Shown here: piece by piece, positions 473 to 35,666 of the stretch
Numbering within the stretch: the first letter of the stretch is position 1
Layout: each line of letters opens with the position of its first letter
IMG/VR virus record: IMGVR_UViG_2671181127_000013
Span: 1-37,174 of that record
DNA length: 37,174 nt
Source of the DNA: a virus
Lineage: Duplodnaviria; Heunggongvirae; Uroviricota; Caudoviricetes
Reading direction: 5' to 3' (one strand)
Translations under genes and position numbers: made by a program
Notes under the pieces: model-generated
Databases searched by the model: none
What the model saw: the letters and a program-made list of their open reading frames with translations, nothing else
Told to the model about the DNA's origin: nothing

Positions 473-613
473 TTACTGTTTACACTGCAAGAACGCCGCA
501 AATTCTGACCACATGATGTTAAGTCTGAACTCACACGGCGAACGGTGTATCATCCAGATGGCCAACAACATGGTTAAGCATAAAATGCTCACGATGATCG
601 TTTTTTGCGGCAT
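473..613 (-). CDS. Hok/Gef-family type I toxin, 46 aa (copy B)
   Basis: My translation: MPQKTIIVSILCLTMLLAIWMIHRSPCEFRLNIMWSEFAAFLQCKQ; about 60 percent identical to copy A, same C-terminal EFAAFLQCKQ. Confidence 0.55.
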   Translation of the reverse strand: MPQKTIIVSILCLTMLLAIWMIHRSPCEFRLNIMWSEFAAFLQCKQ

Positions 614-26431: not shown

Positions 26432-26679
26432 TTGGTGGCTCCTTCGTTGTTCCGGCGCTCCCGGAGTTCGGTCAGTGCTGCCAGTAAATTTTCCCACCAT
26501 GTTTCTTCCACGACCGGATTTTGGCGTGAAAGCAGCTGTTGCGCCGACTCAATCATGCTGTTCAGGTCCCTGTCGCTGATCGCCCTGGTGCTGTTAATGG
26601 TGTGTTGCTGTCTGGTGCTCATGATGTCTGTGGTTCTCCTGTTACTTGCGGTGCTGCTTTCTGGCGGCTGAATGTACAT
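26428..26679 (-). CDS. Hypothetical protein (start uncertain; alternative ATG at 26622)
   Basis: ORF with ATGA overlap to the downstream gene. Confidence 0.35.
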   Translation of the reverse strand: MYIQPPESSTASNRRTTDIMSTRQQHTINSTRAISDRDLNSMIESAQQLLSRQNPVVEETWWENLLAALTELRERRNNEGATK

Positions 26680-30262: not shown

Positions 30263-30441
30263 GGTGTGGCCTCTTTGCTAGTAAGTTCTGAAAACTCACC
30301 ATCCAGAGCTGCGAAACTGTGGGTGGCGAGACGTACGAGGTTCGCAGTACCGGCTAGCAAAGAACCCGGCCCGACCGAAGTCGGCCCCGTACGCCCCGCC
30401 ATTATTCTGACGCGAAAAAGACGTGGCGATACAGTACGCAC

Positions 30442-30462
30442 AAAAAAACCGCTGGCGCGGTT
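30442..30462 (-). terminator. Putative rho-independent terminator separating early-left genes from the replication module
   Basis: Minus-strand ACCGC-GCCA-GCGGT hairpin followed by T7. Confidence 0.4.
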
Positions 30463-30645
30463 GTGCGCTTTGCTAGTCGGCGGGCTGCGAAACCCGGCAC
30501 CCGTTTTATGAGATGCGGGAAAACTGTAACCCGACCAGACGAGCGCTGGCAAGCGGTTTTTGTGTTGCGTGCTGATGTGGTTAGAATGTGGCGAATTAAT
30601 ATCACCTGGCAACTGGTGATTGTCTGCATACGCGGGGTGTTTCTG

Positions 30646-31911: not shown

Positions 31912-32892
31912 TCACGTACTGGCAGGGGTAAACATCACGCTGTAAGTTGCATCTCCCGTCACAGGTCCGCAGTCCGGGCAGTAGCCACCGCCATAGTGAC
32001 CGCAGGCGTTGCACTGTCTCAGGGTGGCGATAACTTCCGGTGCTGGTTCGCGGGTTCTTGCTCCAACGCTTCGTGGTGCCTGTATGCAGTTCATCCGGTA
32101 ACCCCGATAAATGCGTCTGGTTTCCGGTGTGTCGGAATTGGAGATGGTGATTCTGGTCATGCCGCCCGTTTCCTGCGAAAGGCGGTCAAGTGCTGCCCTC
32201 AGGCGAACGTGCTCGTGTTCATCGAATGGTTTTCCGTAGGCGGTGAAATTGCCCTCGCCACTGAACCGCAGGTAAGGGGGATCGCAGTACACGCAAAGCG
32301 TGTTGCCCATGCCGAACAGGTGACTGGCAGAGCTCAGCGTATCCTTAAAATCTGCGTGGATAAGCAGCGTTTGGGTGCTGTTTGCCTTGTCTGCAAATGC
32401 GCGGATTTCCCGCTCAGGGAAGTAGGGTTTTCGGTAGCCGCCGAAAGGCACGTTAAAATCACCTTTTCCGTTCACCCGGTACAGGCCATTAAAACAGTGC
32501 CGGTTGAGGTACAAAAACATGGCGGCCAGTCGCAGTTCACGGCGGTCGCTTATTCCCGTTCTGCTACTCAGGAAGGCATGATTCTCTGCGTTAAAGGTTT
32601 CGCGAATGATGAGATAGTCACCCCTGTTGTTGTGGTTCAGGAACAGGGTTTTCGCCTCGTCGATCAGACTGTCGGTGTTGTCCCGTGCTGCCCGCCAGAA
32701 ATTAATCAGCGCACCATTGGAATCACCCAGGATGTAACGCTTGTAACTGGTGTTCATGAATACCGATGCGCCACCCACGAACGGTTCAACCAGGCAGTCA
32801 GCTTCTGGCAGATGCGCCTTCAGTGTGTTCATGATGCGGCTTTTGCCACCCACCCATTTCAGCGGTGTGCCGGATAACAGTTCTTTGCTCAT
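31912..32892 (-). CDS. DNA adenine N6-methyltransferase (Dam/D12 class) with C-terminal Cys-rich extension
   Basis: LKWVGGK N-terminal motif and DPPY catalytic motif; C-terminal CNACGHYGGGYCPDCG. Confidence 0.85.
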   Translation of the reverse strand: MSKELLSGTPLKWVGGKSRIMNTLKAHLPEADCLVEPFVGGASVFMNTSYKRYILGDSNGALINFWRAARDNTDSLIDEAKTLFLNHNNRGDYLIIRETFNAENHAFLSSRTGISDRRELRLAAMFLYLNRHCFNGLYRVNGKGDFNVPFGGYRKPYFPEREIRAFADKANSTQTLLIHADFKDTLSSASHLFGMGNTLCVYCDPPYLRFSGEGNFTAYGKPFDEHEHVRLRAALDRLSQETGGMTRITISNSDTPETRRIYRGYRMNCIQAPRSVGARTREPAPEVIATLRQCNACGHYGGGYCPDCGPVTGDATYSVMFTPAST

Positions 32893-33116
32893 AACGCGGC
32901 CTCTTTGTTATAGGTTTCGTGCGTTAATAAATCCCATGACTTCCCGTTGTTTTTGCTCAGTAATCGCCAGCGAAAACCGATTCTTATTACCAGGTAGTCG
33001 TGGGGTTTTATACGTGAAAAATTCCGCACGCCGTCGCGGAATAAACGCAGCGATGCGCGGGCTTTTCTTTCCACGTTCAGGGGGGGGCAGCAACACACAT
33101 TCAGGATGGCGGCCAT
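32889..33116 (-). CDS. Hypothetical protein (75 aa)
   Basis: ORF coupled to the downstream methyltransferase. Confidence 0.35.
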   Translation of the reverse strand: MAAILNVCCCPPLNVERKARASLRLFRDGVRNFSRIKPHDYLVIRIGFRWRLLSKNNGKSWDLLTHETYNKEAAL

Positions 33117-33125
33117 GGCTTCACC

Positions 33126-33716
33126 TCATATGTTCAGGAATGGTGTTGTGAAGCGCTGCCAGATTTCTGACACGACCTTTGCCTGGTAAACGGCGTCGCC
33201 CAGCGCGGTGTGAGCAATGGTCTCTTTGCCTGATCGGCCTGGCATTCTCCAGCCGGTTGATTCAGCCATGGCGATAAGCGGACGCATACAGCGCTCGTCC
33301 CAGTAGCACCAGGGGATGCTTTTTTCTCCGGCTGTGCGTGTTATGGCGGATTTCAGGATTGGGAAATCGAAGGATGCGCCTTTGCACCATATGGTCAGTG
33401 AATTGCCCGGGCTTTCGTCATGCATATTGCGTGAAATGAACGCCAGAAATTCGGTCACTGCTGCCAGCTCTGTTCCATCTGCGTTGCGCAGGCAGGCTCT
33501 GGCTTCCACGGATTGTCCGGCCCACCATACAGCGGTGGCTGCATTGACGGTTCCGCCGTTGCGTTCTGAATCCACCGGGTCGATGAATTTCTCAAACTGC
33601 TTGCCCAGCTTTCCGGTGAACGGGTCGAAAAACACCGCCCCAATCGCGAATATGGCTGCGTCCGGTCCGTTACCCAGTGTTTCGGTGTCAATCATGAGAT
33701 GGTTCATTATGCGCAC
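33126..33716 (-). CDS. DEDDh-family 3'-5' exonuclease (DnaQ-like)
   Basis: Exo I motif MIDTETLG and Exo III motif HTALGDAVYQ. Confidence 0.75.
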   Translation of the reverse strand: MRIMNHLMIDTETLGNGPDAAIFAIGAVFFDPFTGKLGKQFEKFIDPVDSERNGGTVNAATAVWWAGQSVEARACLRNADGTELAAVTEFLAFISRNMHDESPGNSLTIWCKGASFDFPILKSAITRTAGEKSIPWCYWDERCMRPLIAMAESTGWRMPGRSGKETIAHTALGDAVYQAKVVSEIWQRFTTPFLNI

Positions 33717-33979
33717 CCCTTCAGTTCGTCTGGGTTGGCGAGTATTGCAATCAGTCGTTCAATGGCTGCGCAGGTTTCCTGTGGACAGGTGTGTGTCTCT
33801 TTCGCTGTCTCAGTCAGCTCGCGCAGTAATTCGCAGATATGTGCACGCTCGGCTTTTCTTGCGGCCATGCTGATATGCGCATGATGGTTAGCTGGTCTGG
33901 CGGTTATTTCTCTGCCGGGTGATTCGGCTGTTCTCATTTGTTGACTCCTGAAAAAAAGACAAAGGGAACCCGAAGGCAT
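33707..33979 (-). CDS. Hypothetical protein
   Basis: ORF in the early operon. Confidence 0.35.
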   Translation of the reverse strand: MPSGSLCLFFRSQQMRTAESPGREITARPANHHAHISMAARKAERAHICELLRELTETAKETHTCPQETCAAIERLIAILANPDELKGCA

Positions 33980-34273
33980 GAATGCCTTAATTAATTGCTC
34001 GTGTGTTTTCTGGTGTTATTCCGCGCCTGCTTTCGGCTTCAGGTTATTCCCAGATCTTCAGGGCTAACCAGATAAGCGCACTCACCTGAAATATCACCCA
34101 TACAGTGGCGATGGTGTGTATTGCTTTTACATTCTTCATAAGGTTTTCGCTTTATTTACGGCGTTTATCGCCGGTAAAGAATAATTCGATATCCTTCAGT
34201 GTGTAGATAATTCGCATAATGCCGATTGCCATAAGCACGGAGATAATCAGAATTACCCATGAAAGAAATATGC

Positions 34274-34516
34274 TCATGCGGCTACCCCTGTGAAGTAAGG
34301 CTCAACAATTTCACCTTCAAACAGTTCTGTCATAATCGACTTTAATTCTTCCAGCGCTTCACGGTCATCGCTGCCCAGTGCGCAGTTGTATAGCCCCATA
34401 ATTGCGCCGCGCAGTGAGTTACGAAGGCTTTCATCCTTAGTTACGCCCCGGTTTGCGAGTTCAAAGTGATAACGTTGCAACGCGTTATTGATAAGTATTT
34501 TGTAGGCTTCGATCAT
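34274..34516 (-). CDS. Hypothetical protein (80 aa)
   Basis: ORF in the early operon. Confidence 0.4.
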   Translation of the reverse strand: MIEAYKILINNALQRYHFELANRGVTKDESLRNSLRGAIMGLYNCALGSDDREALEELKSIMTELFEGEIVEPYFTGVAA

Positions 34517-34534
34517 GGCTGAATCCTTTATTTA

Positions 34535-34870
34535 TCAGTGCTTGCTTCCCGGATATTGAAAACGCAGGCCGCTGATTAATCTGTCTGCCGTTCTTAAGGC
34601 TTCAAAAAATGTGAAGTCCTGTCCGAAGTAATCATCCCCGCGAGTCAGGGTGAAATTAAATCTGCCAGTAACAGGGCTGCGAAAACTTTTGTGAATAACG
34701 ATGCCAGTGTCGCCAATCGTCCAGGTGTGCTTGCCGGTTTGTTTTACCGGGTGACCGTCTGGTGTGGTATGGATTTCAGTGGTTGCGGTCGCACTATTTT
34801 TACGGAAGTGCTGGCGTGCAACGTGGCGTTCGGTGTTGTTATTGATGCGTGCATTTCGTTGTTGCTTCAT
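34535..34870 (-). CDS. Hypothetical protein (111 aa)
   Basis: ORF in the early operon. Confidence 0.4.
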   Translation of the reverse strand: MKQQRNARINNNTERHVARQHFRKNSATATTEIHTTPDGHPVKQTGKHTWTIGDTGIVIHKSFRSPVTGRFNFTLTRGDDYFGQDFTFFEALRTADRLISGLRFQYPGSKH

Positions 34871-34895
34871 TCTTCACTCGGTCCTTATGCGATGA

Positions 34896-35090
34896 TTACA
34901 GTGATTCGTCTCTTGTCAGCCTAAAAATCACTTCAGCCATGACTTCGCTAATTACATCGATCCCCTGATCGGTAAGGGCTTCTTTCCAGGCCTTGCTTGC
35001 ACGTGTTGGATCCATCCTGCCTGATTGCTGTTGTATGATGATGAAGCGTAAATCGCTGTATAAGTCTTTTGTTTGAGTGGAGTCAGTCAT
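34896..35090 (-). CDS. Hypothetical protein (64 aa)
   Basis: ORF in the early operon. Confidence 0.4.
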   Translation of the reverse strand: MTDSTQTKDLYSDLRFIIIQQQSGRMDPTRASKAWKEALTDQGIDVISEVMAEVIFRLTRDESL

Positions 35091-35141
35091 GTCAACACCT
35101 TCAAATCCCGATGCTCTTAATGATCCCGGTTTGTTTTGATG

Positions 35142-35666
35142 TCACTGGTTGCCTCCACTGTATTGGTGTTGCTCCAGTTTTGACTTTCTTCCTGTGTAAA
35201 CCCGCTTTCCATTGATGGTCTGGCAGTCTTCTTTGTTTGCCGGGGAAAACTTTCTTTTCTGTCGGTCGTATGTCCAGTAGCTTTTCCAGTTGTGCCATTC
35301 TGGCGGCTCGCATTCTGGTAGTTCGTCAGCCAGCTTGTCCCACTCTCTGGCGTTAAACCACCACACGCCATCCGAATTTTCATCTTCAGGGTTTGAACGG
35401 GTCTTGTGTCCAGGCATCTGATTTCGCTGAAGCGCCACGCGCAATGCAGCTTTTGTCAACCCGATATAGGCTGCCCCTTTTTCAAGTGAGCAAAGTCCGG
35501 CTACCGGGCCATCCAGTCGCAAGGTTGCCCCTTTTTTGTAGGTGCGTTTTTTCTTTTCCTCTTGGTGTTCATCGTCGTTTGTCGCGCCAACGGATTCGGT
35601 GATGCTGTCGTTTTCCTGAAGGGCTTGTGTGTCAGATAACTCTTTATCGGCAATTGACTTCCGCAT
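35142..35666 (-). CDS. Cox-like excisionase/regulator with extended acidic N-terminus (174 aa)
   Basis: First gene of the early operon, divergent from C; AAYIGLTKAALRVALQRNQMPG...VWWFNAREW resembles the Cox HTH region. Confidence 0.5.
   Translation of the reverse strand: MRKSIADKELSDTQALQENDSITESVGATNDDEHQEEKKKRTYKKGATLRLDGPVAGLCSLEKGAAYIGLTKAALRVALQRNQMPGHKTRSNPEDENSDGVWWFNAREWDKLADELPECEPPEWHNWKSYWTYDRQKRKFSPANKEDCQTINGKRVYTGRKSKLEQHQYSGGNQ

Follow-up and report, generated by a model that had tools for sequence, protein, structure and literature searches.

Two short reading frames for predicted transmembrane peptides in the early operon of a P88-like Escherichia coli prophage

Two short open reading frames (ORFs), ORF41 of 41 amino acids (aa) and ORF31 of 31 aa, follow each other on the minus strand of the virus record IMGVR_UViG_2671181127_000013 (37,174 nucleotides (nt), analysed over its whole length and called the window below), a prophage of Escherichia coli. 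Both were located inside the cox (Pe/cox) early operon of this prophage, and conservation and substitution patterns indicated that both reading frames are under selection. ORF41 is almost certainly a real translated gene and, judged by its sequence, a member of a known, functionally uncharacterised family of prophage membrane proteins resembling gp07 of phage P88. ORF31 is also likely to be a real translated gene, at a lower degree of confidence, and is probably a genuine, lineage-restricted orphan microprotein. We give an even chance to the reading that both are genuine early-operon genes for bitopic inner-membrane microproteins, ORF41 with a host-modulation function and ORF31 as an add-on of one lineage.

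The two frames had been pointed out in an initial annotation, made from the letters alone, as tiny hydrophobic minus-strand ORFs of 41 and 31 aa with coordinates approximate to 1–2 nt. A direct read of the sequence and the ORF list agreed on both, and the coordinates were exact:

34277-34152, minus strand: ORF41, 41 aa, MSIFLSWVILIISVLMAIGIMRIIYTLKDIELFFTGDKRRK
34139-34044, minus strand: ORF31, 31 aa, MKNVKAIHTIATVWVIFQVSALIWLALKIWE
34274-34516, minus strand: DUF4754 gene, 80 aa, Pfam PF15946, directly upstream of ORF41
34289-34285, minus strand: Shine-Dalgarno-like AGGGG within the 3′-terminal part of the DUF4754 gene, 7 nt before the start codon of ORF41
34151-34020, minus strand: indel module of ~132 nt carrying ORF31, with AATAA at both edges, between the ORF41 stop and the 5′ untranslated region (UTR) of the next gene

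The same annotation had placed the pair in an early operon, had seen the ORF41 start overlap the stop of the 80-aa gene and had predicted a single transmembrane (TM) helix in each peptide, all of which was borne out. The best 19-residue Kyte-Doolittle windows were 2.75 for ORF41 and 2.01 for ORF31, with one membrane-length hydrophobic segment in each peptide. Length alone was unremarkable, since an ATG ORF of at least 31 codons was found in 18% of shuffles of the 214-nt gap, but one that also had a hydropathy window of at least 2.0 occurred in 0.03% of them. When ATG ORFs of 25–50 aa were taken over the whole 37-kb window, 5 of 150 reached a hydropathy window of at least 2.0, namely ORF41, ORF31, a pair of Hok/Gef genes and a fifth ORF on the strand opposite an annotated gene. 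This last one, an extremely hydrophobic 38-aa ORF (MLFRSLSLIALVLLMVCCCLVLMMSVVLLLLAVLLSGG, 26555-26671, plus strand) opposite an annotated 64-aa minus-strand gene, is most likely spurious.

ORF41, its family and its coupling to DUF4754

By tblastn, ORF41 was 66–68% identical over 41/41 residues to homologues of the Xuanwuvirus/P88 type (E 5e-10 to 8e-10), in phages including P88, P884B11, 520873, vB_EcoM-569R5 and Citrobacter phage Shae_phiSM. Identity to P88 gp07 (YP_009113050.1, labelled “membrane protein”) was 66%. ORF41 was homologous to P88 gp07 and to the UniRef “Prophage membrane protein” clusters (Xuanwuvirus/P88-like), whose length class is 37 or 41 aa, and shared with them the motif MS[IV]F[LI]SW..LIIS...AIGIMRII...K.IE..FTG[DE]; the window allele belonged to the 41-aa subgroup with a ...GDKRRK tail. 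P88 gp07 and ORF41 also occupied the same slot, directly after DUF4754 with an ATGA overlap, in the cox early operon. Full-length similarity, the ATGA position behind DUF4754 and the single TM helix were all found, consistent with membership of the gp07-like family.

ORF41 is widespread. PGAP calls it a hypothetical protein in RefSeq (e.g. WP_234630929.1, WP_001537134.1 and WP_000110304.1), and its exact sequence was present on at least 1000 contigs in the protein collection. A profile search gave 140 clusters at 90% identity (E 1e-16 to 1e-23), nearly all of which came from Escherichia (E. albertii and E. fergusonii among them); Salmonella and Shigella were also represented in the cluster members. 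By blastn, ORF41 DNA was found in at least 1090 of 5426 complete E. coli genomes (roughly 20%), and the annotation at the matches was always “hypothetical protein” with “DUF4754 family protein”; genomes carrying the family included ST131 and O157:H7 strains. An ORF41 profile scan of genome contigs gave two loci only, one in E. albertii and one on a contig labelled “Vagococcus sp.”. The latter (L041, NZ_JBQPOM010000071.1, Vagococcus sp. WN89Y) is a 226-kb contig with a P88-type DUF4754/gp07 region near-identical to the E. coli prophage versions. The contig looks enterobacterial, and its label is probably due to contamination or mislabelling of a Gram-positive assembly.

Conservation of the frames across related prophages, proposed in the initial annotation as a check, was borne out for both ORFs, with a dN/dS (non-synonymous over synonymous divergence) of ~0.1–0.3 for ORF41. 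Compared with P88 by the Nei-Gojobori method, dS was saturated and dN was 0.21, giving an omega of ~0.08–0.15. Summed over 16 alleles, the ratio of the proportions of non-synonymous and synonymous differences (pN/pS) was 0.32 in frame, versus 0.82 and 2.68 in the other two frames.

The start of ORF41 was tied to DUF4754. In the ATGA at 34277-34274, the ORF41 ATG (34277-34275) overlapped the DUF4754 TGA stop (34276-34274), and GGAGG or GGGGA stood in other lineages at the position of the AGGGG of the window. The overlap was present in 79/79 IMG/VR loci recovered by the ORF41 profile and in 80/80 recovered independently by a DUF4754 profile, two sets (159 in all) that overlap each other. Despite this strict coupling the two genes did not co-vary: DUF4754 proteins only 24–41% identical to one another preceded ORF41 peptides 66–95% identical, and between the window and P88 pN was 0.46 for DUF4754 and 0.19 for ORF41. 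Moreover, DNA homology among mosaic relatives stopped exactly at the ORF41 start (locus L002) or after its stop (L003, L012 and L013). On these comparisons ORF41 appears to be an exchangeable module, more constrained than its phage neighbours. Since it is exchanged and yet better conserved than they are, we infer that what constrains it is the membrane or a conserved partner in the host, and not the variable DUF4754.

The TM segment of ORF41 was predicted at about residues 3–25 and was the best conserved part of the peptide. Invariant or near-invariant positions were F4, S6, W7, L10, I11, A17, G19, I20, M21, I24, I30, E31 and F34; S2, S6, S13 and A17 form a stripe of small residues on one helix face. 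The C-terminal tail was basic, with the motif I30-E31-x-x-F34-T-G-[DE]. AlphaFold2, run with a 21-sequence alignment, predicted one helix over residues 2–38, with a predicted local distance difference test score (pLDDT) of 86–95 in the first three 10-residue blocks. The ORF41 profile had no meaningful match among PDB sequences. Tail variants were seen: PhiR44_2 and 45-aa forms common in genomes carried a frameshifted tail, and in phage Chuche and one IMG/VR locus the peptide was truncated at residue 30. Judged by these variants, the functional core of the peptide would be its TM segment.

A further peptide was observed in the same slot in E. coli SCU-106 (L015, NZ_CP053234.1, ~1879-1983), where an unannotated hydrophobic peptide of 34 aa (MSSTLIIIASWVILLASFVVSYFVVKLLTQYLNL) was ATGA-coupled behind DUF4754 and had only an SWVIL motif in common with ORF41. 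It is either a very divergent ORF41 homologue or a functional replacement.

For DUF4754 itself, AlphaFold2 gave a three-helix bundle with a disordered C-terminal tail (pLDDT 81). A PDB profile search returned designed helical repeats only, a protein homologue search returned just 5 near-identical proteins or fragments, and a genome-contig scan with a single DUF4754 sequence gave no confirmed locus. A cluster joining ORF41 with “DUF4754, partial” had raised the possibility of a gene fusion; its sequences showed that it was a clustering artefact.

ORF31 and its coding signal

ORF31 lies on an indel of ~132 nt, because homology to relatives without ORF31 resumed at 34020/34019. Neither strain 2013C-3033 nor the L003 type carried the indel, nor did any P88-type phage, and P88 has no ORF31 counterpart. 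ORF31 DNA was found in 26 of 5426 complete E. coli genomes, full length in 21 of them, and a degenerate pattern scan of the metagenome collection gave 13 contigs, all with the same context. When 1.84 billion representative proteins were searched exhaustively with phmmer, one relative was recovered, a 33-aa allele. Gene calls for the frame exist but are sporadic (KGM81220.1, DAR61386.1 and DAU42316.1). The earlier remark that such peptides often go unannotated was therefore right for ORF31, which is usually missed, and wrong for ORF41, which carries a PGAP call and, in P88, the label of a membrane protein.

The substitution pattern was that of a coding frame. Eight distinct DNA alleles were found, with the frame open in all of them and one carrying an in-frame 3-nt codon insertion. 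Over the 28 shared codons pN/pS was 0.29 in frame, versus 1.43 and 1.54 in the other frames, and 11 of 21 variable sites fell at third codon positions. The minimal set of changes comprised 13 synonymous and 11 non-synonymous steps where 22% synonymous would be expected under neutrality (binomial P = 7e-4), a count in which the choice of path slightly favours synonymous steps. All replacements were conservative (V/A/I/T, V/L, I/V, S/C, T/S, H/L, N/H and T/N).

The alternative is that ORF41 is real and ORF31 is a fortuitous open frame in a variable 5′ UTR or intergenic stretch, its apparent constraint being a small-sample artefact. Several observations lean that way, and the first four of them also weigh against our own reading of ORF31. 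The selection signal was drawn from only ~24 substitutions in closely related, non-independent sequences. The ATG stood 12 nt past the ORF41 stop in an A-rich stretch without a Shine-Dalgarno sequence. The frame was missing in close relatives without visible consequence. A 1-nt indel three codons before the stop altered the C-terminus, giving the endings KIWE/KIWG or KNLGII. In addition, a frame of this length was common in the gap shuffles, the distribution was narrow (~21–26 of the genomes and a single relative among the representative proteins), and the first 21 nt resembled non-coding sequence, as described below. Against this alternative stand the pN/pS of 0.29 when both other frames were near 1.5, the excess of synonymous and conservative changes, the open frame in 8/8 variants with an insertion of exactly one codon, and the rarity in shuffles of a frame both this long and of TM-grade hydrophobicity. 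On this evidence a non-functional ORF31 seems improbable to us.

The 5′ end of ORF31 was similar to sequence found elsewhere in the family. Its first 21 nt (TATGAAGAATGTAAAAGCAAT, 34119-34139, minus strand) resembled a non-coding UTR of P88-type phages just upstream of a hairpin (TAAGAAAATGTAAAAACAAT); 20 of 2000 shuffles scored as well. This likeness may point to birth of ORF31 within this UTR, or to its loss from it. De novo origin was considered and is not claimed, since a similarity matched by that many shuffles is only suggestive.

ORF31 fits exactly the description of intergenic hydrophobic microproteins in “The Cryptic Bacterial Microproteome” (PMC11188072) and would be an example of a common class. 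That study reported 67,297 clusters of intergenic small ORFs of 15–70 codons in Enterobacteriaceae under purifying selection, mostly hydrophobic or potentially TM, 99.9% of them without Pfam domains. Neither peptide sequence was present in those of its supplementary files that were searched.

Operon context, toxins and the downstream hairpin

The window was a P2-family prophage of the P88-like group (genus Xuanwuvirus, Peduoviridae), which in related complete genomes is integrated between dmsA and serS. At the right-hand end of the window the plus strand encoded an integrase and a C-type repressor; the early operon, with cox, ran on the minus strand. P2-like phages express this operon on infection or derepression, through the Pe/Pc switch. 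Its genes were as follows:

35666-35142, minus strand: cox-like regulator, first in the operon
Order on the minus strand: cox-like regulator, 64-aa ORF, DUF4761, DUF4754, ORF41, ORF31, then the distal genes
Distal genes after ORF31, minus strand: 76-aa gene (phrog_22206), DEDDh 3′-5′ exonuclease, ParE-like protein, Dam methylase
33937-33707, minus strand: the 76-aa gene (phrog_22206)

Candidate small membrane toxins had been one of two roles suggested in the initial annotation. Type I toxins (Hok/Gef, Ldr, TisB, IbsC, ShoB and ZorO) are very small single-TM peptides, frequent in prophages and often unannotated, and in size, single TM helix and charged ends ORF41 and ORF31 broadly resemble toxins of the Hok, TisB, Ldr or Ibs type. 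On this explanation one or both peptides would damage the membrane in a type I or holin manner, by oligomerising and depolarising or permeabilising it, and would arrest growth after the early operon fires. A well conserved TM segment with a dispensable tail, as in ORF41, would fit self-assembly in the membrane, and the low-level translation suggested by the lack of a Shine-Dalgarno sequence before ORF31 would suit a potent peptide.

No described toxin family was matched by either peptide. ORF31 had no family in Pfam, PHROGs, NCBIfam or PADLOC at E <= 1; ORF41 had no Pfam family at E <= 1 and no PADLOC family, and its sub-threshold matches were phrog_36024 in PHROGs (E 0.31) and two in NCBIfam (E 0.022 and 0.2, off-target and far below the cut-off). 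In the same window Pfam detected two tandem 46-aa Hok/Gef genes (1-141 and 473-613, minus strand; PF01848, E 3e-7 and 5e-6, above the cut-off), so the missing match is meaningful for described small-toxin families. An antitoxin RNA was likewise not found. Rfam gave nothing over 33500-35200 at E <= 10, and neither strand of the gap folded better than shuffled sequence (z = 0.03 and, for the antisense strand, -0.56), a negative that covers described or structured RNAs and that an undescribed, unstructured RNA would escape. Promoter-like sites numbered 4 versus 3.0 expected and terminator-like sites 1 versus 3.1 expected, none of them suitably placed. Unlike type I toxin loci, which are autonomous, both ORFs were embedded in a long operon directly behind a preceding ORF, and the searches revealed neither an antisense or overlapping small RNA nor an own promoter or a long structured 5′ UTR. 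Moreover, ORF41 stands intact in ~20% of E. coli genomes, and no gene for a dedicated antidote is found near it. Membership of a type I toxin-antitoxin system was therefore rejected: a small hydrophobic single-TM peptide was found, but not a toxin family, an antisense or adjacent small-RNA antitoxin, or an autonomous locus with a long 5′ UTR. A membrane-damaging toxin of any kind is in our view unlikely, and of the two suggested roles that of a host-targeting peptide is the most plausible.

The Hok/Gef pair, at the ogr/serS end of the prophage, are bona fide type I toxin genes; no RNA of the Sok type reached the Rfam gathering threshold anywhere in the window. A 75-aa protein of a ParE-like toxin family (PF24732, precomputed annotation) was encoded between the exonuclease and Dam genes (32889-33116, minus strand). 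Its end overlapped the Dam start and no obvious antitoxin gene adjoined it. Side by side and both at gathering level, Rfam matches to C4 antisense RNA (RF01695, 82 bits, 30319-30406, minus strand) and to the Hfq-binding isrK RNA (RF01394, 64.5 bits, 30442-30516, minus strand) placed a P1/P7-type c4 element beside an isrK small RNA within a P2-like prophage.

A hairpin was found downstream of ORF31:

33973-33988, minus strand: hairpin AAGGCAT-TC-ATGCCTT in the UTR ahead of the 76-aa gene, followed by a T-rich run

P88-type loci (e.g. L111, L075 and L052) had a positionally equivalent hairpin ~50 nt after the gp07 stop, either TCCGC-ATTC-GCGGA (~40 loci) or TCCGT-ATTA-ACGGA (~23 loci), with a compensatory pair change between them. 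The hairpin may serve in processing, in pausing or as a binding site for a protein. ORF31, or the ribosome terminating on ORF41 where ORF31 is absent, might then act in cis as a leader or upstream ORF. Its translation would control the hairpin and in this way govern how the distal early genes are transcribed, processed or translated, and the peptide itself would not matter. The hairpin lay 33–55 nt after the last upstream stop in every lineage and kept folding through one compensatory pair change and one complete sequence replacement, and in the window type a T-rich run follows it, all of which favours such a leader. It was, however, not scored as an intrinsic terminator (the T-run began ~13 nt past the stem and was absent in P88-type phages), it was there with or without ORF31, and the whole region folded no better than shuffled sequence. 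Selection on the amino acids of ORF31, and its hydrophobicity, would also be unexpected of a pure spacer ORF. Action in cis is thus very improbable, and a leader-peptide or attenuator role for ORF31 unlikely. A structured non-coding RNA in place of ORF31 was dismissed, Rfam being empty and the folding z close to 0 on both strands.

Proposed function and significance

Our preferred reading, a host-modulation role for ORF41 with ORF31 added in one lineage, would work as follows. ORF41 would be made together with DUF4754, because its own Shine-Dalgarno sequence lies in the DUF4754 3′ end and the two genes overlap by ATGA, and production would start from the early promoter once infection or induction relieves repression by C. 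The peptide would insert in the inner membrane with its N-terminus out and a short tail in the cytoplasm, as the positive-inside rule predicts from R22, K28 and K38-K41 on the C-terminal side. Its TM helix may pack with a conserved host inner-membrane component or self-associate; such a target is suggested by its far better conservation than that of the flanking genes and its exchange between divergent DUF4754 types. ORF41 would thereby serve a non-essential early host-modulation function rather than act as the stand-alone toxin of a toxin-antitoxin system. ORF31 would be a later addition, a second TM peptide probably of opposite topology, with the N-terminus in, as K2 and K5 in its basic N-terminus suggest, and probably translated at low level by re-initiation behind the ORF41 stop. 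The existence of the two frames, selection on their coding, their operon position, coupling and distribution and the lack of toxin-antitoxin hallmarks are shown by the analysis, whereas topology, timing of expression and target are inferred.

Two groups of small proteins offer comparisons. AcrZ, MgrB, MgtS, SgrT and PmrR are small single-TM regulators that are chromosomal and stress-regulated and have known partners. Like ORF41 they are 30–50 aa long, with one TM helix, a conserved helix face and no enzymatic domain; they differ in that ORF41 and ORF31 are phage early genes, and the likeness is one of functional analogy, not homology. In our view, action as a small TM regulator of the AcrZ type is the most likely mode for ORF41. 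The second group (lambda Kil and cIII, Rac KilR, Qin DicB, T7 Gp0.4 and T4 Imm/Sp) consists of non-essential small early-operon genes that are switched on by infection or induction and alter division, proteolysis or DNA entry in the host. The Kil/DicB/Imm-type modulators are similar to ORF41 and ORF31 in small size and early-operon setting, but Kil, cIII, DicB and Gp0.4 are not integral TM peptides, and there was no sequence similarity to either ORF.

Other facts count against a host-modulation role. Altered ORF41 alleles occur in viable phages and in many genomes, so that the tail seems dispensable, or even the entire gene where it sits in a prophage. Pore formation by self-assembly would explain the strong conservation of the TM helix just as well. 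The DUF4754 model gave no functional clue, with a best Foldseek match to the PDB at E = 0.73 among generic helical bundles. Finally, no functional study on DUF4754, on the early genes of P88/Xuanwuvirus or on either peptide was found in the literature.

With ORF31, one more orphan joins a kind of microprotein that is already familiar. Neither gene alters current understanding, and the value lies in better annotation and in two small-protein candidates from the large and mostly unexplored class of small hydrophobic phage proteins. As a microprotein gene that is confined to one lineage, goes unannotated and yet shows measurable selection, ORF31 is a tidy case, and it may represent gene birth within a UTR. 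ORF41, coupled to DUF4754 and present in ~20% of complete E. coli genomes, is a well-defined and cheap target for phenotyping. A bolder proposal, which we put forward tentatively and would expect to fail sooner than hold, is that DUF4754 and ORF41 form a two-gene early cassette of P88-like phages, whose 37–41-aa TM component binds a conserved host inner-membrane protein, and that ORF31 is a recently born UTR gene under purifying selection. If this were true, a cassette carried by at least a fifth of complete E. coli genomes would reprogram the cell, e.g. by blocking superinfection, division, transport or a membrane-based defence.

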